Part shown: piece by piece, positions 1,033 through 24,988 of the stretch | Position numbering within the stretch: the stretch's first letter is position 1 | How the letters are laid out: each line of letters starts with the position of its first letter | Sequence record: SRR16203515_3127 | Strand: one strand, 5' to 3' | DNA length: 34,839 nt | Program-made: the position numbers and the translations under genes | The notes under the pieces: model-generated | Told to the model about the DNA's origin: nothing | The model's input: the letters and a program-made list of their open reading frames with translations, nothing else | Database searches by the model: none

Positions 1033-2961
1033 TTATAAATCTAATGTTAAATAAACTTTATTTGTTTCATTATTTACTTTTAATATTTTAAATGAAACTT
1101 TATCACCTAACTTAAATTCTTTTTTAGTTCGTCTACCTCTAATTTTCCCTTTCTCTTCTAAATAAATAAAATAATCAGGCAAATCAAAATAACTTACTAT
1201 ACCTTCTAATATAAATTGATCAAATTCAACAAATAACATTTTTGGTCGAACATGTGTTATTTTTCCTGTAAAACTTTGTCCTACTTTATCCGCTAAGAAA
1301 TGACATTTTAAAGCATCAAATACTTCATTACTTGCAGAATCTGCTCTACGCTCTGACATTGATATATGAGTTGCTATTTTTGTTAATTTTTCAACATCAT
1401 AGTCATAATAATCATGTTGATAGCCTTTTCCGCTTGATATTCTTTGAACATATTTATCACCTTGATTTGACTTTATCAATGCTTTTATTGCACGATGAAT
1501 AAGTAAATCAGAATAACGTCTTATTGGTGATGTGAAATGAGTATATTCAGAATAAGCTAAACCAAAGTGACCACCATTTTCTACTTTATAACTTGCTCTT
1601 GGCATACTCTTTAACAATGTTGAAGATATAAATTCTTTATCGTCTCGACCTTCTGCAATTTCCAACATCTTTTTAAAGTGATGTGTTTTTGTTTTTTCAC
1701 CACCTCTAATTGTCAATCCTATATTTTGAAGAATTTTTCTTACAGAATCTAATTTTGATTCTTCTGGTTTTTCATGGACTCTATAAACTGCTTTAATATC
1801 CATTTTAGTTAACAATTTAGCAGCAGATATATTCGCGCATAACATTGCTTCTTCAATCATTTTATGAGAGCGTTTTCTTTCATAAAACTGAACATCTTCT
1901 ATTTTATGATTATTATCATCAAATGTTATTTTATTTTCTCTTTTTTCAAACTCTAATGCACCACGTTGAGCTTTTGTTTCTTTTAATATTTCATATAACT
2001 TTTCAAATCTTTTCAAATCTTTATAAACATGAGCAAATTGTTCTATTACAGTTTCATTTTTATCATCTAACATTGCTGAAACTTGATTATAAGTAAGACG
2101 AGCTTTTGAATTAATTACAGCATTCATAAATTTAAATGTTTTTATTGAACCTGTTTTTGATATGTTCATTTTTGCTACTAATGCATATCTATCTTTATTT
2201 GGATTAAGAGAGCATAAACCATTTGAAAGATATTCTGGTAACATTGGAACTACTTCATTAGGAAAATAAACAGAGTTACCTCTTTTCAATGCTTCATTAT
2301 TTAATTCAGTTCCTTCTTTTACGTAATGTGCAACATCGGCTATTGCAACATAAAGAGTCCAACCATAATTTGTAGACTCACATAAAACAGCATCATCAAA
2401 ATCTCTTGAGTCTTCACCATCTATTGTGACAAAATTTAAATCTCTTAGATCAAATCTATCTTCCATAGATATTTCTTCTGTTATTTCATTAATTTCTTTT
2501 TCTATTTCAGTATTGAAAATATGAGGGATTTCATGTTTAAATATTGCAATTTTATTTTCGATTTTTGGAGAGTTTTCTCTTCCTAATATTTCTATAACTG
2601 ATGCTTCTGCTAATTCTTTTTGTTTTGGATATTTTGTGATCTTAAATCTTATAATGTCAGCACCTTTACCATTATAATCTGTTATAATTATCTTCTTATC
2701 ATTTGAAAGTTGAACATAGTTATAAAATCTTCCTTGTAAAACTTTACCTACAAAATCAGATTTTCTTTCTAAAACTTCTAATATAACACCTTCTTTTTTA
2801 TTTTGCTTTTCATGGACTTCAACTTTAACTAACTCTCCATCAAAAACTTTTGATATTTGTAATTTTGATAAGTAAATATCACTTTCTTCTTGTGATATTA
2901 AAAATCCAAAACCTGCTTCTGCTATTGTAACTCTTCCTGTTACCATTTTTTTATTACTCAT
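1033..2961 (-). CDS. rnr: ribonuclease R (short form, 642 aa)
   Basis: Cold-shock-type N-terminus (GFGFL). RNB catalytic motif VTIDGEDSRDFDDA, plus PMLPEYLSNGLCSLNP and YTHFTSPIRRYSDL. C-terminal S1 domain. Confidence 0.92.
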   Translation of the reverse strand: MSNKKMVTGRVTIAEAGFGFLISQEESDIYLSKLQISKVFDGELVKVEVHEKQNKKEGVILEVLERKSDFVGKVLQGRFYNYVQLSNDKKIIITDYNGKGADIIRFKITKYPKQKELAEASVIEILGRENSPKIENKIAIFKHEIPHIFNTEIEKEINEITEEISMEDRFDLRDLNFVTIDGEDSRDFDDAVLCESTNYGWTLYVAIADVAHYVKEGTELNNEALKRGNSVYFPNEVVPMLPEYLSNGLCSLNPNKDRYALVAKMNISKTGSIKTFKFMNAVINSKARLTYNQVSAMLDDKNETVIEQFAHVYKDLKRFEKLYEILKETKAQRGALEFEKRENKITFDDNNHKIEDVQFYERKRSHKMIEEAMLCANISAAKLLTKMDIKAVYRVHEKPEESKLDSVRKILQNIGLTIRGGEKTKTHHFKKMLEIAEGRDDKEFISSTLLKSMPRASYKVENGGHFGLAYSEYTHFTSPIRRYSDLLIHRAIKALIKSNQGDKYVQRISSGKGYQHDYYDYDVEKLTKIATHISMSERRADSASNEVFDALKCHFLADKVGQSFTGKITHVRPKMLFVEFDQFILEGIVSYFDLPDYFIYLEEKGKIRGRRTKKEFKLGDKVSFKILKVNNETNKVYLTLDL

Positions 2962-6207: not shown

Positions 6208-7662
6208 ATGAATTTTAAAAAGTCAATGTTGACTATAAGTATATTAGGGTCAATGATTCTTACAGGATGTACAGGTGTATCAATACCAGATGCAGAACAA
6301 TACAATGAAAAACAAATAATACAACCTGCTATGGATAAAGCTGAAAAATCAGAACCTGCTTTAACTAAAATCAGATCGCAAAATTTCACTATATATAGAC
6401 CAGAAAATTTACCTGATATTTTAAGGGATAGAGAAGTAAAATTAAATTTATCAAAAAATGCAACCGTTGCTGATTTAGCAATGGCTTTAAATTTATTAGG
6501 TCTTAGTACAGTAGTAGCAGATACAGAAGACGGAAACATTTCAGATAAATCAATATCTGTTCGTAACTATAATGGTAAATTAGGTAGTTTACTTGATGTA
6601 CTAAGCTCTGTTTATGACATTTCATTTAATTATGAAAAAGGTGGAATATTAACAATTGAAGATCAGTCTGTTTATATTATTAATATTATTCAAAATGAAG
6701 ATATTATCGAAGATGTTTCATCAACTCTTGGTAGATTAGGTGCAAATGAAATTGAGTATTCATTAGTTGGTGGTAACTTAATTTATAAAGCATCTCCAAA
6801 AGCTCATGAAAAAGTTAAAAGATATATCGAATTCTATTCAAAAAATGCTGCAGTTATTGGCTTACAAGTTTCAGTTGTAACTGTTCAATTAGATAAGAAA
6901 AGTAATAAAGGTTTTGATTGGTCTACTTTAAATGTAGTAGCAGGAGACCCTGGTGTATGGGATGAAGCAGTAGCTCCAGGAGATGGAGATAATCCTGTAA
7001 CGGCTGCAACATCTGCAATAGCAGAAGGTTTAGGTTTAAAAGCAGGTGGTACAGGTCTTGGTTTAAAATATGTTAATGGTAACTTTAATTTTGAAGGTGT
7101 TATTAATTATTTAAGTACATACGGAAAAACAGAAGCAAATCAATCAACATTAATGAAAATTATTTCAGGTAAAGAGGTTTCTCTTATCTCAACTCAATCA
7201 ATTCCTTATGTAGAAGAAGTTGAGTTAACATTAGATGACGATGATGATTCAGAAGGAATTACTACATCAAGTGTTGATGTTGGTCTTGATTTGACAATTA
7301 CTCCATATTTTGACTCTAAAACAAATATGGTTACAGTTGATTTAAATCTTGATTTAAGTTCTCTTCTTGCAATGACAGAAGTTTCAAGTGGTAATACTAA
7401 AATAACACAACCACAAACTCAAAATCAAACATTCACAAATTTAATGAAATTAAAAGCAGGTGAATCAAGTGTTATCGGTGGTATCATGTATGATACACTT
7501 TCTGATAATAGAACTGGTATTTCTTACTTAGAAGAAATGGATATAGCGAGCCAAAGTAAACAGTTAACTAAAAATGCGGTATTTATTATACTTCGTCCAA
7601 CTGTAACATTATTTGGTGATTTTGAAAAAGAAAAAGAAGTTATTCAAAAAATTGTAGATTAA
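6208..7662 (+). CDS. lipoprotein secretin, PilN/BfpB-like type IVb pilus outer-membrane channel
   Basis: Lipobox ILTG-C. Secretin-domain motifs GFDWS, YLSTYGKT, VDVGLDLTITPY, LKAGESSVIGG and FIILRPTV. Confidence 0.85.
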   Translation: MNFKKSMLTISILGSMILTGCTGVSIPDAEQYNEKQIIQPAMDKAEKSEPALTKIRSQNFTIYRPENLPDILRDREVKLNLSKNATVADLAMALNLLGLSTVVADTEDGNISDKSISVRNYNGKLGSLLDVLSSVYDISFNYEKGGILTIEDQSVYIINIIQNEDIIEDVSSTLGRLGANEIEYSLVGGNLIYKASPKAHEKVKRYIEFYSKNAAVIGLQVSVVTVQLDKKSNKGFDWSTLNVVAGDPGVWDEAVAPGDGDNPVTAATSAIAEGLGLKAGGTGLGLKYVNGNFNFEGVINYLSTYGKTEANQSTLMKIISGKEVSLISTQSIPYVEEVELTLDDDDDSEGITTSSVDVGLDLTITPYFDSKTNMVTVDLNLDLSSLLAMTEVSSGNTKITQPQTQNQTFTNLMKLKAGESSVIGGIMYDTLSDNRTGISYLEEMDIASQSKQLTKNAVFIILRPTVTLFGDFEKEKEVIQKIVD

Positions 7663-7675
7663 TAAGGTTGGTAAA

Positions 7676-8905
7676 ATGAGTTTATTTAATAAAGATAAAA
7701 AGCCGACTTTAAAAAAGAAATCGGCAAAAAATTCAAAAACAAGTGCAAATGCGATGTTATCTAAGTATTTGCCAACTTCTTTATTTATAGGTATTAAGGA
7801 TGACGTAAATAAAAAGACATTGGAAAGTTATATAACTTCATTGTCTCAAAGTTTATTTGCAAATTCAAAAGAAGGTAAATACTCAATAAAGAAATTAAGT
7901 AAAGATAAATATATTTATGAAATACATAATGGTTCAAATGATTTAACATATTTACCATTAGTTATTTCTAAATTAATTGATGGCAATGAAAAAGAAATTA
8001 TTTTAAAAACGAGTGGGCAGAACGTTCGAGTTGTTAAGAAAACGGCAACCAAAATCGAAACCAACACTTTAATTGAAAGTAATAATAGAGATGATGATGC
8101 TATAATCGATTATGATACAAAAGGTAAAATGGTTGATTTGGTAAAACCTGGAACTGAGTTCTTTTTGGCAGCAAGTCTATTTGCAGGATTTACTGGTTTA
8201 GTTGCTTCTTTCTCATTTTTAACTAAATATTATATGTTAAATGCAGATTATAGTTATAATCCAGAAATTCCATCTCATTTAACTGCCATAGAATTTTTAA
8301 ATAGCATAAACAAAGAAGAACATACACAAACATCTTTTTTGAAACATGTTAAATTTGAAAAAGGAAAATGGGAATATGAGTTTGAAACAATTGAAGCTCC
8401 TAATAAAATATTAACAGAAGAAGAGTTATCTTCTGGTATGGTAAATCTACCAGAAAGCGATAAGCAATATGATGTTGTAAATGCACATTCTAATTTTGAT
8501 AATATGGTTAAAAATAATCAATCAAGTAATAATAATATTGAAAATAATATAGATGAATCAAATATTTCTCATTCTAATATAATTCAAGGTAATATATCAG
8601 AATTTGATGACATTCAGAATACTTTAAATATTTCAAATGATGAATTGTTGAACAATGAAAATGTTGTAAATGAAGTGTCAGTTATTGAAAGTGTTGTATC
8701 AAAAGATTCTAACATGAATGATGAGAATCTAAATATAGATAATGAAGTTAATTCGACTATACAAGAGACTAAACAAGTTAATGATGTTAATCATGTTAAT
8801 GAAGTTAATGATGTTAGTGAAGTTGATGAGTTTGAAATATTAAGTGTAGAAGATGTAAATGGATTAGACATTTCAAATTTACCAGATAATGTCGTTGTAG
8901 AATAA
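7676..8905 (+). CDS. bitopic membrane protein, PilO-like position, with low-complexity acidic C-terminus
   Basis: Cytoplasmic N-domain, one TM (FFLAASLFAGFTGLVASFSFL), N/E/V/D-rich tail. Directly follows the secretin. Confidence 0.55.
   Translation: MSLFNKDKKPTLKKKSAKNSKTSANAMLSKYLPTSLFIGIKDDVNKKTLESYITSLSQSLFANSKEGKYSIKKLSKDKYIYEIHNGSNDLTYLPLVISKLIDGNEKEIILKTSGQNVRVVKKTATKIETNTLIESNNRDDDAIIDYDTKGKMVDLVKPGTEFFLAASLFAGFTGLVASFSFLTKYYMLNADYSYNPEIPSHLTAIEFLNSINKEEHTQTSFLKHVKFEKGKWEYEFETIEAPNKILTEEELSSGMVNLPESDKQYDVVNAHSNFDNMVKNNQSSNNNIENNIDESNISHSNIIQGNISEFDDIQNTLNISNDELLNNENVVNEVSVIESVVSKDSNMNDENLNIDNEVNSTIQETKQVNDVNHVNEVNDVSEVDEFEILSVEDVNGLDISNLPDNVVVE
8777..8830 (+). repeat. six imperfect 9-bp tandem repeats (GTTAATGAW) encoding VND-VNH-VNE-VND-VSE-VDE
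   Basis: gttaatgat gttaatcat gttaatgaa gttaatgat gttagtgaa gttgatgag. Confidence 0.8.
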
Positions 8906-8917
8906 GGAAAATAGATA

Positions 8918-9295
8918 ATGTTAAGATTGTTAAATAAAAAAATAATGATGGCTGTAAGTACATTACTTTTAATTTTAGGTGGATTCTTTTGTATTGTTAT
9001 ATTCTACAATTTATTTAATGCACCAGAAGATTTAGTTGAAAGTTCAAATATTTATAACGAAATATTAGATGATTGTAAGGATAAAGCGGAATCATTAGGT
9101 TTTAAAAATGTTGTTGCACGAAATTCAATTTTAAAAATCACAGAAGATGTTGTAGATGAACCAATGGAACTTGCAACAAAAACATCAATGTTACAAAATT
9201 ATTGTAAAAAAATAGAATTGTATAAATATTGTTTAGGTGATGATTGTGGAAGTGGCAAACAATTTAGAATGACATTCAAAATAATGGATGAATAA
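8918..9295 (+). CDS. small membrane-anchored Cys-containing pilus-cluster protein
   Basis: N-terminal TM and four Cys in the exported part. AAGGA SD. Confidence 0.65.
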   Translation: MLRLLNKKIMMAVSTLLLILGGFFCIVIFYNLFNAPEDLVESSNIYNEILDDCKDKAESLGFKNVVARNSILKITEDVVDEPMELATKTSMLQNYCKKIELYKYCLGDDCGSGKQFRMTFKIMDE

Positions 9296-9300
9296 AAAGA

Positions 9301-9329
9301 AAAATAAGAGCTGTTGCTCTTATTTTTTT
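9301..9329 (+). terminator. intrinsic terminator inside pilus cluster
   Basis: AAAATAAGAGC-TGTT-GCTCTTATTTTTTT. Confidence 0.7.
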
Positions 9330-9355
9330 GACTAAAACAAAAAAGTCGGTAGACT
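9328..9355 (+). promoter_or_regulatory. putative sigma70 promoter for second half of pilus cluster
   Basis: TTGACT-16 bp-TAGACT immediately after the terminator. Confidence 0.5.
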
Positions 9356-9393
9356 TATAATAAAGGTTTTAATAATAAAAAAGGAGATTTAGT

Positions 9394-9606
9394 ATGATAA
9401 ATACTATTAATAAATTAACAAAATTTGTTAATTCAAAAACAATGGTTGTTTTAGATTTTTTAGGAGCATTTGCCGTATTAGGATATGCAGCTTATTTATA
9501 TTCAAATGGGGATGATTATAAATTGTGGGCTGGAATAGGATGTGTTGCATTAATAATGGCAATTCTTAAACCTGCCAAACATCTTACAAAAAAGATAAAC
9601 AAATAA
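9394..9606 (+). CDS. small two-TM membrane protein
   Basis: Two hydrophobic segments. Strong AAGGAG SD. Confidence 0.7.
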   Translation: MINTINKLTKFVNSKTMVVLDFLGAFAVLGYAAYLYSNGDDYKLWAGIGCVALIMAILKPAKHLTKKINK

Positions 9607-9632
9607 ACGAATAAAGATAAAAAGGATTTTAA

Positions 9633-10091
9633 ATGCATTCGCTAATAATTACAGCAGTTTCAATAGCATTAATGGCATCTGTTTTATATTACAATATAAA
9701 CTATGTTAATAGTGATAGATATGACCAAATGGTTTTTGAAAGTGTTTTAACAACTGATTTTTACAATTATGAAACATCTATAAACTCATATAAGAAAACA
9801 TTTAATGTTTATCCTGATAATTTAGATTGGGAAAATGAACTTAAAAAAACAAAATTGTTGTTGCCACAGAATAGTGATAATAAATATTTATATGAATACA
9901 ATAAAACAAATAGAACTGTTGCCATTTGTTTCAAAGATATCATTCAAAAAAGTGATTATGAATATATAGAATCTTTTCATTCAAAAGGATTGACAGTGCT
10001 TGCAAATGATTGCTTTAAAGCTGTTGATGAAGTTATAGACACAACACCAAATAGTTTTACAGTTGCTTTAACTATTTGGATAAAAGATTAA
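9633..10091 (+). CDS. minor pilin-like protein
   Basis: N-terminus MHSLIITAVSIALMASVLYY parallels the major pilin MFSLVISIIAIAL...IYY. Also INSYKKTFNVYP helix end and a Cys pair. Confidence 0.6.
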   Translation: MHSLIITAVSIALMASVLYYNINYVNSDRYDQMVFESVLTTDFYNYETSINSYKKTFNVYPDNLDWENELKKTKLLLPQNSDNKYLYEYNKTNRTVAICFKDIIQKSDYEYIESFHSKGLTVLANDCFKAVDEVIDTTPNSFTVALTIWIKD

Positions 10092-10101
10092 GGAAAATTG
10101 A

Positions 10102-11790
10102 ATGATTGCAATTATTATAATGATTATGTTATTTTTAGGATTTGCTATTATAGTATCTTATAATATCATGTCAGTAAATCATAACATATCAGTTTCAAGT
10201 CAAATAGATGCCATTGATAATGAATTAAAAACAGTAAAAACAAAACTTATACAATCTGCAAAGCCTATTCTTAGTGCTAATGATTATGCTTTACCATATG
10301 GTGAAGATTTTTCTGCAACAAAAGAACACCGTTTACCAAGTAATTTTGGAATTTCTTTAAAAAATATAAAAGGACATTATTATCAATATTGTCCATATGG
10401 AATTGATGACGGAACAACTACAACTGAAATAGTTACACAGAATGATGGAACTTCTTATGGTGTTTTTAATACTATAATTGATGGAGTTAAATATACAACT
10501 CATTCGCCAACAAGTGCATATGCAAAACCAGTTGGTGCTCCCGATGTTCAAGCTTTTATTATATCAAAATTTGAAAATGTAGATGTTAAATGTGGAGATA
10601 TAGAATACGATGAAGATTCAGCAACTTATTTTTTAAGAACTGCAAAAGTTTCATATATTACAAAAGACGAAATTTCGAATTATTATCAACTTCAAGATTT
10701 ATCAGGTGTTGTTGAAGAATATAACCTTGATTCTTCTAATATTGATGATATATTTTCTGTTATTGGAAATGATTCTTCAAATAAATCATATGAACTTTCA
10801 TTAGATGAAGATGTTTCATTATCCTCTCAAATAAATATAGAGAGAGATAAAACAAAAACAACAGATCTGACTATTAATTTAAAAGGTTCAGAGTTAAAAG
10901 GTCAAAATTTAATTTTAAAAAATGTAAATGCTTTAATTAAAGGAAACAATGGAACAACAACAAGTTTAGATTTAACTGGTCTTTCATTAATAGACTCTGA
11001 TTTATATTTAGATAATGCAAGTATTGGAGGAATAAGTTCTCTTAATTCTAATATTACCTTTGATAATTCAAGTTTATATTCAAGTGCAGATAATTTAAAT
11101 ACTTTTAAATTAATTAACTCGGATGTTAATTTTAGAAATCAGAATCATATTAAAATGAATTTCCCAAGTGCTGAAAATTCTTTTATAGATCTTTATAACT
11201 CTAATTTTTCAATTGTTAATAATGGTTCTCTTGAACTTTTTAAAAATTCAAATAATGCTATAAATCATGTTTTTAATTTGGCTAAATCAAATGTTTATAT
11301 TGATGGTGTGTTAAATGAATCTACAAGTAGTAAATCAAGAGCAGGTACAAATGTTATAAATATAGGTTCAGGGAGTTTACTTTATTTAAATGGTGGTGAG
11401 TTAAGACTTGCATCTAAATTTAATTCTGGAAGAGATTATATGCATGTTAAAGGTGATTTAATTACAGAAGGTGATAATAATATTATTAATGCCAGTAATC
11501 AATATGTATTACATGATTTCATTGTTATAAAAGGTGGTAGCTTATCCTTAGAAAATGTAAAAATTGGTAACAATGGTATTTTAGGCGGTGGTTCAACAAT
11601 TAAAGATGAAGGTGCTGCAACAAATATAAACGGAGCTAAATCTGTTTTTGGGGATGGAACAGCAGATGTATATAGAAGTTCTGATGGTTGTTTTGAAGGT
11701 AACATATTTAAAAATGTAGACGGAACAAACAACAGTAGTGATAGTAAATCGGATAAACATAATAATATGTCGGATTTCGATTGTATTTAA
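10102..11790 (+). CDS. large minor pilin / tip adhesin candidate (PilV-like) with beta-helix-like C-terminal region
   Basis: N-terminal hydrophobic helix, then a pilin-like segment. Repetitive L-x-N-S-x-(I/V/F)-x-F strands follow, with a terminal Cys pair. Confidence 0.55.
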   Translation: MIAIIIMIMLFLGFAIIVSYNIMSVNHNISVSSQIDAIDNELKTVKTKLIQSAKPILSANDYALPYGEDFSATKEHRLPSNFGISLKNIKGHYYQYCPYGIDDGTTTTEIVTQNDGTSYGVFNTIIDGVKYTTHSPTSAYAKPVGAPDVQAFIISKFENVDVKCGDIEYDEDSATYFLRTAKVSYITKDEISNYYQLQDLSGVVEEYNLDSSNIDDIFSVIGNDSSNKSYELSLDEDVSLSSQINIERDKTKTTDLTINLKGSELKGQNLILKNVNALIKGNNGTTTSLDLTGLSLIDSDLYLDNASIGGISSLNSNITFDNSSLYSSADNLNTFKLINSDVNFRNQNHIKMNFPSAENSFIDLYNSNFSIVNNGSLELFKNSNNAINHVFNLAKSNVYIDGVLNESTSSKSRAGTNVINIGSGSLLYLNGGELRLASKFNSGRDYMHVKGDLITEGDNNIINASNQYVLHDFIVIKGGSLSLENVKIGNNGILGGGSTIKDEGAATNINGAKSVFGDGTADVYRSSDGCFEGNIFKNVDGTNNSSDSKSDKHNNMSDFDCI

Positions 11791-11812
11791 ATGATAATAA
11801 TAAGGATAAAAA

Positions 11813-13468
11813 ATGAGTGAAAACTTTGATGTAAAAAATAGTGATGTTCATACATTAAATGAAAAGATTGAATTTGCACTATTAGAACAGAGAATAATTC
11901 CAGAAGAAGCTTTAAAAACAGCAAAAATGGAAAGTGAAATCACTGGAGAAGATCTGACAAAAATACTTGTTAGAAATGGATTTGTATCACAAGATAAAGT
12001 TTTAGATATTATTATAGATTTAGATACAGAAACTTTAATCAATGAAGAAATTATTATACCAACAATAAAACCAGAAATTTTAGAGAAACATAAAACAATT
12101 ATTAATGCAATTACAGATAAAGTTGTTTTCTTTGGTACAAATAATAATAATGGAGAGGATATTGCTTATATGTTAAAGCAAAATTATTTTCCAAAACATA
12201 CAATAAAACAAATCCCTGCAAATCCAGAAAAAATCAGTGATTATTTAGAAAAAATTAAAAGTATTTATGATGATGACGGTTCAATGGTTGAGCGTATTAT
12301 TCGTAAAGCTATAAAAGAAGATGTTTCAGATATTCATATTGTACCTCATTATGATACTTATACTGTATTATTTAGATATTTAGGTGTAAGACACCCTGAT
12401 TACATGGGTACAAAAGATGAGTATCAATCATTAGGTGCTCGTATAAAAGATTTATCGAAAATGGATATGTCAGAAAGACGTAAACCACAGGATGGTGGTT
12501 TTCAAATTGATTATAATGGACGTTTTGTTGATTTACGTGTTGCAACAGTTCCTACAAATGATGGTGAAATTATAGTTATACGTATTCTTGATCCTGAAAA
12601 GGCGCAATTAAGTTTAGAAAGTTTAGGTATTTCTGGAATGGATGAATGGAGAATGGGTGCATCTCGTTCTGATGGATTATGTTTAATATGTGGTCCGACT
12701 GGTTCTGGTAAAACAACTACATTAAACTCAACATTAAGAGAACAAGATAGATTTGGTAAAGCAATTTTTACAATAGAAGATCCAGTAGAATATAGAATTC
12801 CATACATTGGACAAGTAAATATAAATACTAATGTAGGCTTAGATTTTGCTCGTGCTATCAAGGCATTTATGAGAAGCGATCCTGATGTTATAGTCGTGGG
12901 TGAAGTGAGGGACGACGAAACAGCGAGAAATGCAATAAAAGCTGCTGAAACTGGACACCTTGTTTTTGCTACATTACATACAGGTTCAATTCCAGGAGCT
13001 GTATCTCGACTAAGAGATTTAGGCGTTGAAGGTCACGAGTTAAAATATGTTTTAAGAGCTGTTTTAGCACAAAGACTTATGCGTGTTGTTTGTAAAGGTT
13101 GTAATGGTACTGGTGTTAAATCTATTGATGATGATGGAAGATTTGATTATTTAAGTGAAGATGAAAATGAATTTTGTCCTACTTGTCAAGGTAAAGGATA
13201 TAGTGGACGTACAATTGTATCAGAAGTTAAATATTTTTCAGAAATGCAAGAAGTTCTTGGTATTATGTCAAGTAGTGAAAAAGATGCTGAAATTACTTGG
13301 ACTACAATGTTAGAAGATGGATACAATAAATTTATAAAAGGTGTCACATCACCTGGCGAATTTATTCGTTTATTTGGTCCAGAAGCTGAAAGAATGTTAA
13401 TCGCTGATGGTTATGATATTGAGTTGATAAATGATAAAGGTTTCTTTGTTGAGAATAAAGGAGACTAA
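11813..13468 (+). CDS. GspE/PilB/PilQ-family pilus assembly ATPase
   Basis: SDIH, RKPQDG, Walker A GPTGSGKTT, TIEDPVEY, Walker B VIVVGEVRD, His box AETGHLVFATLH, CxxC...CxxC. Confidence 0.95.
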   Translation: MSENFDVKNSDVHTLNEKIEFALLEQRIIPEEALKTAKMESEITGEDLTKILVRNGFVSQDKVLDIIIDLDTETLINEEIIIPTIKPEILEKHKTIINAITDKVVFFGTNNNNGEDIAYMLKQNYFPKHTIKQIPANPEKISDYLEKIKSIYDDDGSMVERIIRKAIKEDVSDIHIVPHYDTYTVLFRYLGVRHPDYMGTKDEYQSLGARIKDLSKMDMSERRKPQDGGFQIDYNGRFVDLRVATVPTNDGEIIVIRILDPEKAQLSLESLGISGMDEWRMGASRSDGLCLICGPTGSGKTTTLNSTLREQDRFGKAIFTIEDPVEYRIPYIGQVNINTNVGLDFARAIKAFMRSDPDVIVVGEVRDDETARNAIKAAETGHLVFATLHTGSIPGAVSRLRDLGVEGHELKYVLRAVLAQRLMRVVCKGCNGTGVKSIDDDGRFDYLSEDENEFCPTCQGKGYSGRTIVSEVKYFSEMQEVLGIMSSSEKDAEITWTTMLEDGYNKFIKGVTSPGEFIRLFGPEAERMLIADGYDIELINDKGFFVENKGD

Positions 13469-13470
13469 TT

Positions 13471-14649
13471 ATGTCATCAAATTATAGAGTAACAATAAAA
13501 CATCGAAATGGTAAAATTGAAGTTCTTAATGTTCAAGCTCCAAGTGAAGCGAATGCAAAAAGTATAGCACGAAGAAAAGGTGCTGTTATTACTATTAAAA
13601 AGGGTTCTGGAAAAGGATTTTTTGAAATTCCATTGCTTGCAGAAGAAAGACAGATGTTGTTACATCGTCTTGCTTCTATGTTAGCATCTAAGTTAGGTAC
13701 TTCAGAAGCATTAGATGTTATAAGAACATCTTTTGGTGGTTCAATTAGAAAAATAGCAAACCAAATTCTTACTCATATGGAATCTGGTTCAGATATTGTT
13801 GAAGCTATTGAAAAAATAGGACCTCCTCATTTTCCAACAACAACAATTGCATTAATAAAAGCAGGTTCGAAAGGTGGAGAAACATGGAAAGCATTACGTG
13901 ATGCGGCTGAATTTGAAGTAGAAATGCAGAGAGTTAAAAAAGGCGGTGGACAAGGTGTATGGGGTGGAGTTGCAGGATTTATTATAGCAGCTATTGTTAC
14001 ATTTGTAGCAAAATTTTATGTTGCAGATAAAGTAATGGATACAGACTTCTTTAAAATGGCAGGAGATAGTGTTGATTTAAGTTTTATTAATCTCATGTCT
14101 AACCTCGTTGGTTATTCAATGTTAATATTCTTTTCAATCTTTATGTTTTTATTTTTACTTGGTTCTGTTGGTCGATGGGCATTTCCAACACATGCTGATA
14201 ATTTAATTTTAAGAATACCATTTTATAAAGATCTTGTTTTAGCAAGAAGTAACTATATTGTTCTATATGGATTAGCCGTAATGATTAAATCAGGAGTATC
14301 TATGGAACAATCACTTGGACTTGCTGCTACAAATACTCGGAAAGGTTCTTTAAAAGATGATTTAGAAAGAGCAATTGATGCAATTAAAAAAGGTAAGCCT
14401 TGGGCGCAAATGATGCATACTTTCCATGCAACAGATAGAGCTGCACTTTCTGTTTCGGCTGATAAAGAACAAATTGCAAATACATTGGATGCTTTATCAT
14501 ATCAATATAGAGAAGATTATAAAAGGGTTATTGGATCATTCGGACCTTCTATGCAATTATTAGCTGCTCTTTATTTGGTATTAGCATCAGGTATATTATT
14601 TGGATATACAATGTTACCTATGTTACAAGCGGCAGCAAAAGGATTCTAA
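13471..14649 (+). CDS. GspF/PilC/PilR-family inner-membrane platform protein
   Basis: Two T2SSF-like repeats (LASMLASKL..EAL and LAVMIKSGVSMEQSL), LRIPF motif, three TM segments. Follows the ATPase. Confidence 0.88.
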   Translation: MSSNYRVTIKHRNGKIEVLNVQAPSEANAKSIARRKGAVITIKKGSGKGFFEIPLLAEERQMLLHRLASMLASKLGTSEALDVIRTSFGGSIRKIANQILTHMESGSDIVEAIEKIGPPHFPTTTIALIKAGSKGGETWKALRDAAEFEVEMQRVKKGGGQGVWGGVAGFIIAAIVTFVAKFYVADKVMDTDFFKMAGDSVDLSFINLMSNLVGYSMLIFFSIFMFLFLLGSVGRWAFPTHADNLILRIPFYKDLVLARSNYIVLYGLAVMIKSGVSMEQSLGLAATNTRKGSLKDDLERAIDAIKKGKPWAQMMHTFHATDRAALSVSADKEQIANTLDALSYQYREDYKRVIGSFGPSMQLLAALYLVLASGILFGYTMLPMLQAAAKGF

Positions 14650-18977: not shown

Positions 18978-19006
18978 TTGTTTTTTATTTTTATTTGTTG
19001 TATAAT
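18978..19006 (+). promoter_or_regulatory. putative sigma70 promoter of prfB
   Basis: TTGTTT-17 bp-TATAAT. AAGGAG SD at about 19030-19035. Confidence 0.65.
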
Positions 19007-19041
19007 GATTTTGTTCAACTTAATAAAATAAGGAGTGAGTT

Positions 19042-20151
19042 ATGAACATACTTTATTCATATGAAAAACAAAACGATATCGCTACTGCGAAAGACCTATT
19101 TAAATCTATTTCAAAACAATTCCATTTCTGAAATTCTCTTCTTAAAATCGAAGACCTTTCAGAACGAGAAGAGGAAATCGATTTAATTCTTGCTGTTGCA
19201 GACTATAAAAAAAACTTGTCAGCACTGTTCAAAGAAAAAAAATACATTAATAATACAATAACTTTCAACAATGAAATATCTTCTCTTATTTCTGATAATT
19301 CTTCGATCTTATCTGATTTAGATGATGAAGAGTTTTATGAGTTATTTCAAGATAACTTGATTATTATAAGCAATTTAATGGATGAAATTTATTTAAGTAA
19401 TCTTTCTAAGTTAAAATATGCGAAACATGATTGTTACATGCAGTTTAAAGCTTCAACTGGAGGTATGGAATCAGAAAACCTTGCTTTTATTATGTTTAAA
19501 AATTATCTAAAAATGTTTGAAGATCAAAATATTAGCTGTGAGGTAATTGATTATGAATCTTCTGGATCTCAATTATTAAAAAATGGAATCATAAAAATAG
19601 AATCAGATTATGCTTTTGGGCGGTTTGAAACGGAAAAAGGAATTCATCGATTTACAAGAGTATCACCTTACGGAAATGGCAAATTACATACTTCTTTTGT
19701 TTTTATTGATGTGTATCCACATATAGAGTTTGATAAACAATTTAATATCAATAAATCTGATCTAAGAATTGATACATTTAGAGGAAGTGGAGCAGGTGGT
19801 CAACATAAAAATGTCACAGATAGTGCTGTTAGAATAACACATAAACCAAGTGGTATTGTTGTTAAAATTGAGAATGAAAGAAGTCAACACCACAACAAAA
19901 AAGAGGCAATGGATATATTAGCATCAAAATTATATGAATTGGAAACTTCTTTATATGAAAAAGAAAGCAATGATAAAAAAGGAAAAGGTGTCAGTCAAGA
20001 TTGGGGTCAACAAATTAGAAGTTATTCTATTGAACAAAATCGAATAAAAGATCATAGAACAAACTTAGAATTAAATTGTAATATAAATTATTATTTACAA
20101 AACATGTTTGATTTTATAACTAAAAATAACATTAATATATCGATTAAATAA
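19042..20151 (+). CDS. prfB: peptide chain release factor 2 with in-frame TGA at codon 30 (19129-19131); 369 aa if read through
   Basis: GGMES, ETEKGIHRFTRVSPY..KLHTSF, GSGAGGQHKN, ERSQHHNK, WGQQIRSY. The ORF-track ORF (TTG 19216) continues upstream in the same frame to SD-preceded ATG 19042 across one TGA. Confidence 0.85.
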
Positions 20152-20158
20152 TAAAAAT

Positions 20159-20190
20159 AAAGCCATGTTTCTGATTCATGGCTTTTTTTT
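20159..20190 (+). terminator. intrinsic terminator after prfB
   Basis: AAAGCCATG-TTTCTGATT-CATGGCTTTTTTTT. Confidence 0.75.
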
Positions 20191-23062: not shown

Positions 23063-24988
23063 ATGAAAACTGAAAAAAGTGAACTTTGCATTGATGAGGA
23101 TGTCAATTCAAGTTCAAAAAGATTTAAAGGAGTTGTTCGAGGAACAAGACAGAGATTTGGATTTTTAAATGTAAGTGGACATGAAGATATTTTTATAAAA
23201 CCACAAGAAATGGATAAAGTTTTTGCAGGAGATACAATTAGTATACTTGTTGAAAATTATGGTGATAAAGACCAAAATGTAATTGTTGAAGAAATTATAA
23301 GCACTAAGTTTGAACAATGTATGGGTGTTTATGTGGAAAATGAAACAGGTTCTTATGTGTTTCCTGATGATTACGGATTCAATCGAGGTATAAGAATTCC
23401 AAAATCACATAGAAAACGTGCAAAAAATGGTGACTATGTAAAAGCAGAGGTTATAGAACATCCATTTGAAAGTAAAAAACCAAAAGCTCGTGTTTTAGAC
23501 GTTATTGGTTCTACTAATAATGTTGGAGTTGAAGTAGATTATTTTTTATCAAAAAACAATATATCAACAAGGTTAACACCTGAAATAAAAGTTGAATGTG
23601 ATAAGTTAATGAGTGAATATGATGTTAATTCAATTTCTCATAAACGAAAAAATTTATCCAAATTAAATTTTTTCACAATTGATGGTGATAACACCATAGA
23701 TATTGATGATGCTATATATGTTCAGAAGCTTAAGAATAAATGGAAAATATTAGTTGCTATATCTGATGTATCAGAGTTTATTGAAGAAAACTCTGCTATT
23801 GATGAAGAAGCGTATAAAAGAATTTCAACTGTTTATTTAATTGGTAAAACAATTCCGATGCTTCCTGCTGAATTTGCTCATGAATATTTGTCATTAAAAC
23901 CAAATGAAAAAAAACCAGTGTTGATTGCTGACATGACTTTAGACTTTGATGGGAAAATGATTAAATCTGATTTTTATGAAGCTATTATTGAGTCAAAAGC
24001 AAAACTAACATATTCAGAAGTTGAACAGTTTATTGAGACAGGTAGTTTAAATGAAGATCATTTGCATGTTCAAAATGAAGTTGGATTGTTATATGAACTT
24101 CATAAAACATTAAGAGATAGAAGATCGGAACAATATCTAATTCCTGCTAAACGATTTGATTATAAATATTTGTTAAATGAAAGTAGACATATTGAAAATA
24201 TTGAACTTATAACTCAACAATATTCATATAGAATGGTTGAAGAAGCAATGCTTTTAGCTAATAGATGTGCAGCTCGATTTATTAAAAATGATGAAAATGC
24301 AATTTTTAAAACTCAAAATGGGGTATTAGAGGGAAAGAAGAAATACCTTGCAGAATATTTAAGAAAGCATGTTTTTTTTGAAAACTCAATGTTTGAGAAT
24401 ATTGAAGATTTTAAACATTTGTATTCATTAATTGAAGAAAACGAGAATTCAGAAGATATTAAGCAGTTTTTAAACCTTAATTTTAAAAAGAGTGAGTTTT
24501 CTAATATAGCTAATCAACATTTTATAATGGGTTTTGATGAGTATACTTATTTTACTTCTCCTATTCGTAGATATATTGATATTGAAACACATAGGATTAT
24601 AAAAGCTAAAATAAATAAGAAAAAGTATAAAAGCAATAGGTTGAATAGAATTGAACATTTTACTAACAAAGAAAAAAATATTCAATCTTGTTATTCAGGT
24701 GTTGAACATTGGTTGAAGTCAATTTATATACAAAAACATAAAGATATTTCATTTAATGCAGTTGTTACAAATGTAAGTATTTTTGGAGTTAATGTTAAAA
24801 TTGGAATTAATGGAATTGAAGGTTTTATACCTGTTTCTAATATAACAGAACATAAAACTCGTGTTATAAAAAGGAATGAGTTTGAAATTGATGTTGCAGG
24901 TCATATATTTAAATTAAATGATTCTGTTGTTGTTAATCTCAAGGAGATTCAAGAGGGATATTCTATTATATTTAATCTTGAAAAATAA
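23063..24988 (+). CDS. rnb: RNB-family exoribonuclease, RNase II-like
   Basis: KGVVRGTRQRFGFL (cf. RNase II EGVVKATEKGFGFL), FTIDGDNTIDIDDA, MVEEAMLLAN, YTYFTSPIRRY, C-terminal S1. 641 aa. Confidence 0.8.
   Translation: MKTEKSELCIDEDVNSSSKRFKGVVRGTRQRFGFLNVSGHEDIFIKPQEMDKVFAGDTISILVENYGDKDQNVIVEEIISTKFEQCMGVYVENETGSYVFPDDYGFNRGIRIPKSHRKRAKNGDYVKAEVIEHPFESKKPKARVLDVIGSTNNVGVEVDYFLSKNNISTRLTPEIKVECDKLMSEYDVNSISHKRKNLSKLNFFTIDGDNTIDIDDAIYVQKLKNKWKILVAISDVSEFIEENSAIDEEAYKRISTVYLIGKTIPMLPAEFAHEYLSLKPNEKKPVLIADMTLDFDGKMIKSDFYEAIIESKAKLTYSEVEQFIETGSLNEDHLHVQNEVGLLYELHKTLRDRRSEQYLIPAKRFDYKYLLNESRHIENIELITQQYSYRMVEEAMLLANRCAARFIKNDENAIFKTQNGVLEGKKKYLAEYLRKHVFFENSMFENIEDFKHLYSLIEENENSEDIKQFLNLNFKKSEFSNIANQHFIMGFDEYTYFTSPIRRYIDIETHRIIKAKINKKKYKSNRLNRIEHFTNKEKNIQSCYSGVEHWLKSIYIQKHKDISFNAVVTNVSIFGVNVKIGINGIEGFIPVSNITEHKTRVIKRNEFEIDVAGHIFKLNDSVVVNLKEIQEGYSIIFNLEK

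Follow-up and report, generated by a model that had tools for sequence, protein, structure and literature searches.

The prfB locus and its expression signals

The window analysed here is a stretch of 34,839 nucleotides (sequence record SRR16203515_3127). On its plus strand, a reading frame for release factor 2 (RF2; gene prfB) runs from ATG 19042 to TAA 20149–20151 and comprises 369 codons, with a single internal TGA at codon 30. The N-terminal sequence from ATG 19042 is MNILYSYEKQNDIATAKDLFKSISKQFHF, after which the gene reads TTC TGA AAT, with the TGA at 19129–19131. Codons 1–29 (19042–19128) encode the N-terminal part of RF2 helix 1 and are in frame with the remainder of the gene. Codons 31–369 and the TAA (19132–20151) encode the PCRF and RF-1 domains, including an SPY motif at 19663–19671 and the GGQ motif at 19795–19803 (residues 252–254). 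An earlier sequence-only reading had described this in-frame TGA, with the same frame continuing through SPY and GGQ to the TAA, and inspection of the sequence and its translation confirmed this description. The UGA and the A that follows it (19129–19132) were read in the sequence as the putative recoding site and are shared with three further loci described below (L001, L033, and L034).

Upstream of the gene, a promoter-like site was read by eye at 18978–19006 on the plus strand, consisting of TTGTTT (18978–18983), a 17-nt spacer and TATAAT (19001–19006). TATAAT is a perfect −10 hexamer, and together with its flank (TATAATGATT) it is identical in the window, L001, L033, and L034. The site is nevertheless weaker than first described: TTGTTT matches the −35 consensus at only three of six positions, and the scanned region has no excess of promoter-like sites (10, with 12.1 expected by chance). 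The scan does not report the TTGTTT–TATAAT site because of this 3/6 match. The AAGGAG Shine–Dalgarno (SD) sequence noted before was found at 19030–19035, 6 nt ahead of ATG 19042. L001 carries GGAGG at the corresponding place ahead of its own ATG; a strong SD thus sits at the upstream ATG in both species. Downstream of the TAA, a terminator-like hairpin (GCCATG...CATGGC with a T run; 20162–20190, plus strand) was read by eye; the terminator scan omits it, and the likely reason is the loop of 9 nt, as the scan allows at most 8.

The window is a segment of the chromosome of an uncultured, low-GC, marine gammaproteobacterium-like lineage. The sequence had initially been called an 'element', which is incorrect, as the gene content is that of a bacterial chromosome. 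A phage origin was rejected: megablast of 24.8 kb against phages gave no match, tblastn matches were all below 60% identity, and a viral contig scan returned no relative. A search for the TGA-type RF2 in the genome bin of the relative (G001) and 40 GTDB relatives located it on a single contig of that bin (C1). This restricted occurrence arises because G001 is a two-organism bin that was classified by its other member. The bin also holds a canonical prfB with CTT TGA C, on contig C26, which by its tetranucleotide signature belongs to the other organism and therefore gives no evidence for a paralogue.

A divergent RF2 with a displaced UGA

The part of the protein after the TGA matches Pfam PCRF (2.6e-23; 83.3 bits, cut-off 24) and RF-1 (6.2e-36; 123.3 bits, cut-off 35). 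The NCBIfam prfB model TIGR00020 scores 268 bits, compared with 211.6 and 206.1 bits for the RF1 models, and E. coli RF2 in the PDB scores 203 bits compared with 160 for RF1. The score of 268 bits lies below the curated NCBIfam prfB cut-off of 370, and by these sequence comparisons the protein is a member of a divergent RF2 clade. The tripeptide 'anticodon' SPF is a signature of RF2; here and throughout the clade, SPY stands in its place. SPY also occurs in P0016, an ordinary RF2-like match outside the clade, and the idea that it marks an altered codon specificity was dropped for this reason.

In E. coli, prfB is expressed by a +1 programmed frameshift at CUU UGA C, with the UGA at codon 26, preceded by an SD-like AGGGGG. 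The UGA of the window had been placed at the position equivalent to this stop. Two independent alignments instead put it five codons further upstream. In the MAFFT alignment (A3), L34 forms an invariant column and is aligned to the Leu of the canonical GYL/D, and in a phmmer comparison with E. coli RF2 the query L34 pairs with the L of LDYDAKKERLEEV. The sequence that aligns with the canonical CTT/TGA frameshift site is CTT AAA (Leu34–Lys35; 19141–19146, plus strand), now an ordinary in-frame pair of sense codons. At the position of the UGA itself, canonical RF2 has a Leu and no conserved Trp.

Conservation of the in-frame UGA

Besides the window, the TGA occurs in L001, a syntenic orthologue of 60% identity, and in two metagenome loci, L033 (a diverged strain) and L034, which is identical to L001 in prfB and may not be an independent observation. 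None of these homologues has a sense codon at the site. Coding-type conservation was found on both sides of it. Between L001 and L033, codons 1–29 differ by four synonymous and no nonsynonymous changes, codons 31–360 by 40 synonymous and five nonsynonymous changes (dN 0.006, dS 0.252; dN/dS about 0.02), and the TGA is unchanged. This pattern indicates strongly purifying selection on both sides of the stop. Because L001 and L033 both retain the TGA, a sequencing error and a recent mutation can be discounted as its source. Contig pieces from four sequencing runs, none of them RNA runs and all with small shares (0.07–0.19), cover other parts of the locus, some with no differences (e.g. 19003–19120); none spans 19129–19131.

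Of 7999 candidates scored in a protein search, 7973 met the 1e-30 threshold, and the clade was drawn from the best 120 of these 7973. Within the best 120, the top 15 clusters are 53–77% identical and the next matches are at most 44% identical. Here, 13 of the 15 clade representatives are truncated at the 5' end (238–335 aa). By cluster, still within the best 120 of 7973, eight contain both truncated proteins and full-length forms with a W at the site, one contains the W form only, and six contain truncated forms only. One W form, P0136, is the translation of L033, whose DNA reads TGA, so that the W there represents TGA translated under code 4. In another case, a 29-residue protein ending in FHF (P0145) and the truncated P0002 are given the same longest-contig figure, 4762. 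DNA scans of genome and metagenome contigs returned only the L001 species as further clade DNA. The clade is therefore represented at the DNA level by two species, and for its other members the TGA is deduced from the lengths of the gene calls and from W forms under code 4; TGG could be present in some of them. Across the clade, which has diverged to 49–67% identity, the same single stop appears to be kept, with no further stops or frameshifts.

The A after the UGA, pointed out in the sequence-only reading, is also conserved: the following codon begins with A (Asn, Thr, or Lys) in 10/10 lineages, although amino-acid conservation and shared ancestry may account for part of this. In E. coli, tRNA-Trp reads through UGA more readily when an A follows, according to the available portions of one report (PMC10540940).

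UGA remains a stop codon in this lineage

The genomes of the window and of its relative use the standard code. Among 128 ORFs (33 in the window and 95 on C1), the RF2 gene is the only one in which an internal TGA joins two coding parts, compared with 283 in-frame TGG codons (55 in the window and 228 on C1). TGA terminates 10 of the 128 ORFs, or 6–8% per sequence (31 TAA, 2 TGA, and 0 TAG in the window; 81 TAA, 8 TGA, and 6 TAG on C1), and one of these TGA stops is part of an ATGA stop/start overlap preserved in the two genomes.

The tRNA complement was taken from the bin of the relative, which is incomplete and mixes two organisms; these results thus describe the relative and not the window's own genome. 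At the ARAGORN-scanned places of all 134 tRNA hits in this bin, there was neither a tRNA(UCA) nor a tRNA-Trp(CCA) with a 4-bp anticodon stem. Two tRNA-Trp(CCA) genes of ordinary type lie on a contig of the bin that shares the tetranucleotide signature of C1, and both have anticodon stems of five pairs. One of the two has a G–U top pair in this stem, and both have U11–A24, which we take to be the Hirsh-suppressor state.

These data bear on the possibility that the lineage gives UGA two meanings. In such an early or arrested UGA-to-Trp reassignment, the prfB TGA would be a tolerated Trp codon, derived from UGG under AT pressure and without a sensing role, and an altered tRNA or ribosome would decode UGA efficiently as Trp, as has been suggested for Providencia siddallii PSAC, a symbiont of leeches. 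The very low GC content (26–28%), the rarity of TGA stops and the G–U and U11–A24 pairs of the tRNA-Trp genes are in keeping with this idea. So is PSAC itself. In the available portions of the PSAC report, prfB likewise has an in-frame UGA with an A-rich 3' context in a genome of very low GC, beside a retained tRNA-Trp(CCA), and readthrough is proposed to give some functional RF2 (PMC10540940). The PSAC codon, however, is described there as a strain-specific UGG-to-UGA change in a gene called a pseudogene under code 11, within a genome in which 125 of 610 genes have an in-frame UGA and code 4 is emerging (PMC10540940). The UGA studied here, in contrast, is conserved over a 15-cluster clade (from the best 120 of 7973 matches), is the only one in 128 ORFs, and belongs to a genome in which UGA still serves as a stop.

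A similar comparison applies to XS4, a Fastidiosibacteraceae endosymbiont and low-GC gammaproteobacterium. The accessible text of two papers reports that XS4 retains RF2 alongside UGA decoding by tRNA-Trp(CCA), but that UGA means Trp genome-wide and that this tRNA-Trp(CCA) has a 4-bp anticodon stem (PMC12213064, PMC13092985). The genes of the present lineage use TGG, and the two tRNA-Trp of the relative have five-pair stems. A Leu in canonical RF2 at the aligned position, rather than a conserved Trp, also argues against a tolerated Trp codon, and we judge a dual meaning of UGA to be unlikely.

Possible routes past the UGA

A second possibility is that the 29-codon frame is a leader ORF that ends at the UGA, with a shortened RF2 produced from a downstream start by reinitiation or independent initiation. 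Gene callers do place the start downstream, at TTG 19216 in the window and at codon 39 in L001-like sequences (P0004), and RF2 would still be sensed through termination at a leader UGA. The sequences share no downstream start, however. At codon 39, the window has CTT, L001 has CTG, and L033 has TTG. The TTG at 19216, already noted as having no SD, is TTA in L001 and has no counterpart there, and no SD-like run precedes any of the candidate starts; the strong SD is the one at the upstream ATG in both species. The stretch upstream of the stop is 29 or 30 codons long and in frame with the body of the gene in 10/10 full-length sequences of A3, and an island of conservation, KQFHF-stop-NSLL, spans the stop. 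The AlphaFold2 model likewise predicts one continuous helix (residues 13–34) across residue 30, with a mean pLDDT of 83.4 and a block pLDDT of 88–89. We therefore regard a separate leader as improbable.

Still less probable is that the lineage barely needs RF2 and that its prfB is decaying or dead. Rare TGA stops and a protein score below the NCBIfam cut-off would fit such a gene. The within-species dN/dS of about 0.02 downstream and the absence of nonsynonymous changes upstream do not, and neither do the intact GGQ and SPx motifs, the retention of one and the same stop at 49–67% identity without other lesions, and the continued use of TGA as a stop.

The canonical frameshift can be compared with the locus point by point. 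An RF2-specific stop early in the ORF is present, at codon 30 here and codon 26 in E. coli, as in a frameshift cassette. The coding frame, by contrast, is identical upstream and downstream of the TGA, whereas a +1-frameshift cassette joins two frames. The context reads TTC TGA A and not the slippery/stop heptamer CUU UGA C, so that the slippery CUU-U is missing and A rather than C follows the stop. Of the 22 occurrences of CTTTGA in the window, none is on the plus strand within prfB; the single match within the prfB span lies on the minus strand at 19229–19234. No SD-like purine run precedes the TGA, the sequence there being AAACAATTCCATTTC, without a GGAGG-like run. The sequence-only reading had noted the lack of both a CTT-TGA slippery site and an internal SD, and both statements were borne out, as was its prediction that a +1 shift would enter a frame closing near 19184: this frame ends at TAA 19184–19186, within 18 codons. 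The −1 frame closes after five codons.

Ribosomal hopping was rejected, as no matched take-off and landing codons that give an open frame were seen when the sequence was read by eye. No conserved downstream stimulatory RNA structure was found near the stop (z = −1.18 for the window, +0.36 for L001); a hairpin burying the UGA can form in the window and is missing in L001. Although UGA is the selenocysteine codon and the window folds a hairpin around the site, the insertion of selenocysteine, or a bypass by hopping or a pair of frameshifts, is so improbable as to be negligible, given that the hairpin is not kept, that no tRNA-Sec (RF01852) scores above cut-off in the bin of the relative (the top-scoring candidate, with 46.6 bits where 47 are required, is a tRNA-Ser(UGA)), and that the alternative frames offer no way past the stop.

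A proposed readthrough switch for RF2 synthesis

Taken with the conserved UGA lying within the gene's own frame, these results suggest that RF2 is probably made only when ribosomes read through the stop. We consider programmed UGA readthrough, probably inserting Trp and providing negative feedback on RF2, to be a likely explanation of the locus. Readthrough as the decoding event, Trp as the inserted residue, and a yield that tracks the RF2 level are what we infer from the sequence. The original proposal of autoregulation by readthrough thus stands in part: the TGA, the coding constraint, the lack of a frameshift, and the A context support it, whereas the equivalent position and the 'element' on which it was set out do not hold.

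RF2 is the sole factor that terminates translation at UGA. In the proposed mechanism, translation would start at ATG 19042 behind the strong SD and meet UGA-A after 29 codons. With RF2 plentiful, the ribosome would release a 29-residue peptide. With RF2 scarce, it would wait, and a near-cognate tRNA, most likely the ordinary tRNA-Trp(CCA), would read the UGA; translation would then proceed without a change of frame and yield RF2 of 369 residues. The yield of RF2 would therefore fall as RF2 activity rises. Full-length RF2 would thus depend on failed termination at a UGA, with the built-in negative feedback of the canonical frameshift. The lineage would have lost the frameshift site, now CTT AAA, and would carry the sensing UGA five codons further upstream.

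As no downstream RNA structure was found to be conserved, sequence context by itself would have to set the efficiency of readthrough, and in the bacteria known so far such context yields no more than a few percent. A low demand for RF2, with 6–8% TGA stops, is compatible with such a low-yield gate. A similar low-demand argument appears in the available portions of a study of F. johnsoniae, with 7% RF2-specific stops (PMC12421855), and the canonical prfB frameshift, like the present gene, is reported there and elsewhere from a genome in which few genes end with TGA (PMC12421855; bioRxiv 10.1101/2024.09.24.614795).

With somewhat less confidence, we lean towards a broader statement, that the whole uncultured marine gammaproteobacterial lineage has exchanged the prfB +1 frameshift for programmed UGA readthrough as its sensor of RF2.

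Implications

Programmed frameshifting has its textbook example in prfB, and to our knowledge few cellular genes of bacteria show conserved readthrough with a regulatory role. Apart from PSAC, no conserved readthrough of prfB is described in the available portions of the literature consulted (PMC12421855, PMC13245932, PMC10540940, PMC13092985, PMC12213064, bioRxiv 10.1101/2024.09.24.614795), whose supplementary tables may list such genes. As far as their available text goes, surveys of 12,751 and 818 genomes class prfB only as 'frameshift' or 'no premature stop' (PMC12421855, bioRxiv 10.1101/2024.09.24.614795), and the survey of 12,751 genomes equates a premature prfB stop with a frameshift. 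Gene callers split or truncate the prfB genes of the present lineage or apply code 4, and its RF2 is consequently mis-annotated in public data.

If the proposed switch is correct, prfB would have a third state, in which the same sensor codon is solved by readthrough. This would imply that the feedback logic is what is selected and that the recoding mechanism is interchangeable. It would also represent a conserved, chromosomal example of an essential bacterial translation factor regulated by stop-codon readthrough, and a natural UGA-A cassette whose efficiency could be measured directly. In this lineage UGA would stably act as a stop in every gene but that of its own reader, an intermediate of the kind postulated on the way to UGA-to-Trp capture. 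The finding would thereby bear on how Trp captures UGA in AT-rich genomes, as one essential protein would already need readthrough.

A conserved in-frame TGA in a divergent RF2 gene

The RF2 gene (prfB, 19042–20151) is read in a single frame on both sides of an internal stop codon. Behind a Shine–Dalgarno (SD) sequence (AAGGAG, 19030–19035), 29 codons run from ATG 19042 to an in-frame TGA at 19129–19131, and the same frame continues for 339 more codons to TAA 20149–20151. The part after the TGA matches the Pfam domains PCRF (2.6e-23) and RF-1 (6.2e-36) and contains both the SPY motif and GGQ. The gene scores as RF2, with 268 bits for the NCBIfam prfB model vs 206–212 for RF1 models, and 203 bits for PDB RF2 vs 160 for RF1. 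Since 268 bits lie below the NCBIfam prfB cut-off of 370, this is a divergent RF2.

The sequence-only reading had described an in-frame TGA within an RF2 gene, no slippery site or internal SD, and an unproductive +1 frame, all of which were borne out: CTTTGA is absent from the + strand of the gene, no purine-rich SD-like run was seen upstream of the TGA on reading the sequence, and the +1 frame closes with TAA at 19184–19186. The −1 frame closes after 5 codons. The proposed promoter stands in part, with a perfect and conserved TATAAT, but the TTGTTT −35 element matches only three of six consensus positions and is weaker than claimed. This site was not listed in a promoter scan, and promoter-like sites in the region were not above chance.

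A genome-contig search identified a syntenic locus (L001) on a 122-kb contig, C1, of the metagenome-assembled genome G001. Its RF2 is 60–62% identical to that of the window, shares the gene order DUF1232 protein, ADP-ribosylglycohydrolase, RF2, small ORF and exonuclease I, and carries the identical TGA (KKQFHF*NSLLQ). Two metagenome loci of the same species, L033 and L034, have the TGA at the same codon; the L034 gene is identical to L001 and may be the same data, and L033 is a diverged strain. L001 and L033 differ by 4 synonymous and 0 nonsynonymous substitutions in codons 1–29, and by 40 and 5, respectively, in codons 31–360 (dN 0.006, dS 0.252), with the TGA kept. Both flanks are therefore translated in one frame and strongly constrained. 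At the level of sequence, constraint on both sides of a retained TGA rules out sequencing error, a recent nonsense mutation or a pseudogene. Fragments of the window occur in four public runs, none of which spans 19129–19131.

Of 7999 candidates scored in a protein search, 7973 passed the 1e-30 threshold, and the best 120 were listed. Among the matches listed, 15 clusters stand apart at 53–77% identity to the window RF2, the next matches reaching 44% at most; 13 of the 15 representatives are 5′-truncated (238–335 aa), and the other two are full-length proteins that have W where the stop lies. Within the 90% clusters of these listed matches, truncated and full-length W forms occur together in 8/15, the W form alone in one and truncated forms alone in six. 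One W form, P0136, is the letter-for-letter translation of L033, whose DNA has TGA; the W forms are therefore products of gene calling under code 4, with TGA read as Trp. The 29-residue ORF P0145, which ends in FHF, and the truncated body P0002, both from another species, share the longest-contig figure 4762. The stop position is invariant amid varying neighbours (FHF-W-N, FHS-W-T, FES-W-K, FEI-W-N), and the following residue is Asn, Thr or Lys, and its codon thus begins with A, in 10/10 lineages. Clade members known from protein alone would likewise have TGA; some could carry TGG.

Position of the stop relative to the classical frameshift site

The UGA had been placed at the position equivalent to the classical one; it lies near, but five codons upstream. 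This register was obtained from MAFFT with six full-length canonical RF2s and from phmmer against E. coli RF2 structures, and both agree. Leu34-Lys35 (CTT AAA, 19141–19146) align with the Leu-Asp pair flanking the canonical frameshift stop, and codon 30 with the first Leu of LRGYL. By this alignment, the classical site appears as ordinary sense codons, CTT AAA, and the hydrophobic residue aligned with codon 30 would suit Trp. AlphaFold2 (mean pLDDT 83.4, pTM 0.78) predicted a continuous helix 13–34 through residue 30 (block pLDDT 88–89).

Organism and genetic code

The window (26% GC) encodes a SohB-type peptidase, two RNase II/R proteins, DsbB, RecN, exonuclease I and a secretin/PilB/PilC-like cluster, to which C1 adds MutS, ClpB, FtsH and FadE. 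Named relatives of exonuclease I and PilB are Pseudomonadota and Gammaproteobacteria (50–54% identity), and phage and viral contig comparisons gave no phage signal. The window, earlier called an element, comes from the chromosome of an uncultured gammaproteobacterium-like lineage and is not a mobile element. The RNase II/R paralogues (RNB, CSD2, OB_RNB and S1 domains) are separated by no more than 22 kb, at 1033–2961 (−) and 23063–24988 (+). At 6208–14649 (+), a PilQ-like secretin, a PilB-like T2SSE ATPase and a PilC-like T2SSF stand among five ORFs without Pfam match. About 35 metagenomic proteins are related to the ATPase at ≥56% identity; three share longest-contig figures with clade RF2s (83209, 86446 and 30423 bp), which suggests that they are on the same contigs.

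G001, a public bin labelled Chloroflexota, combines sequences from two organisms, judging by tetranucleotide signature: C1, C11, C15, C19 and C22 correlate mutually at r 0.87–0.96, C9, C17 and C26 at r 0.78–0.88, and the two groups with each other at r 0.14–0.50. Its two MutS genes are only 37% identical. An RF1-like gene on C9 and the second MutS, on C17, are the other organism's. A canonical CTT TGA C prfB on C26 was rejected as a second RF2, as it too belongs to that organism and is therefore uninformative on a second RF2 in this lineage.

An early UGA-to-Trp reassignment is a less likely reading, as proposed for the leech symbiont Providencia siddallii PSAC, whose prfB is the only other case of an in-frame UGA found in the available portions of the literature; large surveys, in the parts accessible, class prfB as frameshifted or without premature stop, and one of 12,751 genomes equates a premature stop with a frameshift. 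In the available text of PMC10540940, the PSAC stop is read as a pseudogene-like trigger of code change, and 125 of 610 PSAC genes have an in-frame UGA, vs 1 of 128 ORFs here. Forty window ORFs were reduced to 33 by removing 7 nested in larger ORFs, the automatic non-overlapping set being the same 33; they end in 31 TAA, 2 TGA and 0 TAG, and the 95 C1 ORFs in 81 TAA, 8 TGA and 6 TAG. The codon TGG is used in frame 55 times in the window and 228 times on C1. Across both sets, reading TGA as sense joins coding parts in RF2 only, and elsewhere gives merely short C-terminal or spurious upstream extensions. An ATGA stop/start overlap is kept in both genomes (window 2958–2961; C1 about 26149), one of few sites where TGA clearly acts as stop in this lineage. 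Stop counts, TGG use and this overlap indicate that UGA serves as a true stop, though a rare one, and that the lineage needs RF2.

None of the bin's 134 tRNA hit sites, when scanned with ARAGORN, gave a UCA anticodon; C15 carries two tRNA-Trp(CCA) genes, both with 5-pair anticodon stems. The relative has long tandem tRNA arrays, unusual for a bacterium (C1, C11, C15, C19, C22; loci L003–L032, L035–L041), with 39 tRNA genes on C1 alone, including 10 tRNA-Glu(UUC) and 7 tRNA-Asp(GUC); copies inside one array are diverged, not identical. Two array tRNAs have CUA anticodons (ARAGORN label 'Pyl'), one well-formed (77 nt, L032:1590–1666 (−)) and one odd (69 nt, L015:1628–1696 (+)). They resemble amber suppressors, yet TAG ends 6/95 C1 ORFs and 0/33 window ORFs.

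Routes past the stop and a proposed mechanism

A leader ORF with a separate downstream RF2 start is unlikely, as no such start is conserved: codon 39 is CTT, CTG or TTG across three sequences, and the window's TTG 19216 is TTA in L001. The common frame, the length and an island of conservation that spans the stop favour a fusion. Selenocysteine insertion or bypass has no support, with no tRNA-Sec match above cut-off in G001 and no hop past the UGA found on reading the sequence. Decay of prfB is excluded by dN/dS.

A stem at 19126–19165 of the window (UUCUGAAA paired with UUUCAGAA) could enclose the UGA, and the surrounding 141 nt fold with z −2.66. L001 lacks this pairing, so the hairpin is probably incidental.

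With no frameshift, hop, Sec machinery or conserved downstream start, the anatomy leaves UGA-A readthrough as the probable way in which full-length RF2 is made. The reader would most likely be tRNA-Trp(CCA); in E. coli, tRNA-Trp readthrough is favoured when an A directly follows the UGA, as quoted in the accessible part of PMC10540940. Of the proposed readthrough autoregulation, a conserved gate requiring readthrough is well supported, whereas we infer the regulatory response: because RF2 alone terminates at UGA, its yield must fall as its activity rises. More RF2 activity would thus mean less RF2 made, the feedback logic of classical prfB, here without a frameshift and from a UGA further upstream. 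No conserved RNA structure was found near the stop (z −1.18 in the window, +0.36 in L001), so the gate may be inefficient. This would be tolerable for a genome with only 6–8% TGA stops, and a similar low-demand argument is made for F. johnsoniae in the available part of PMC12421855.
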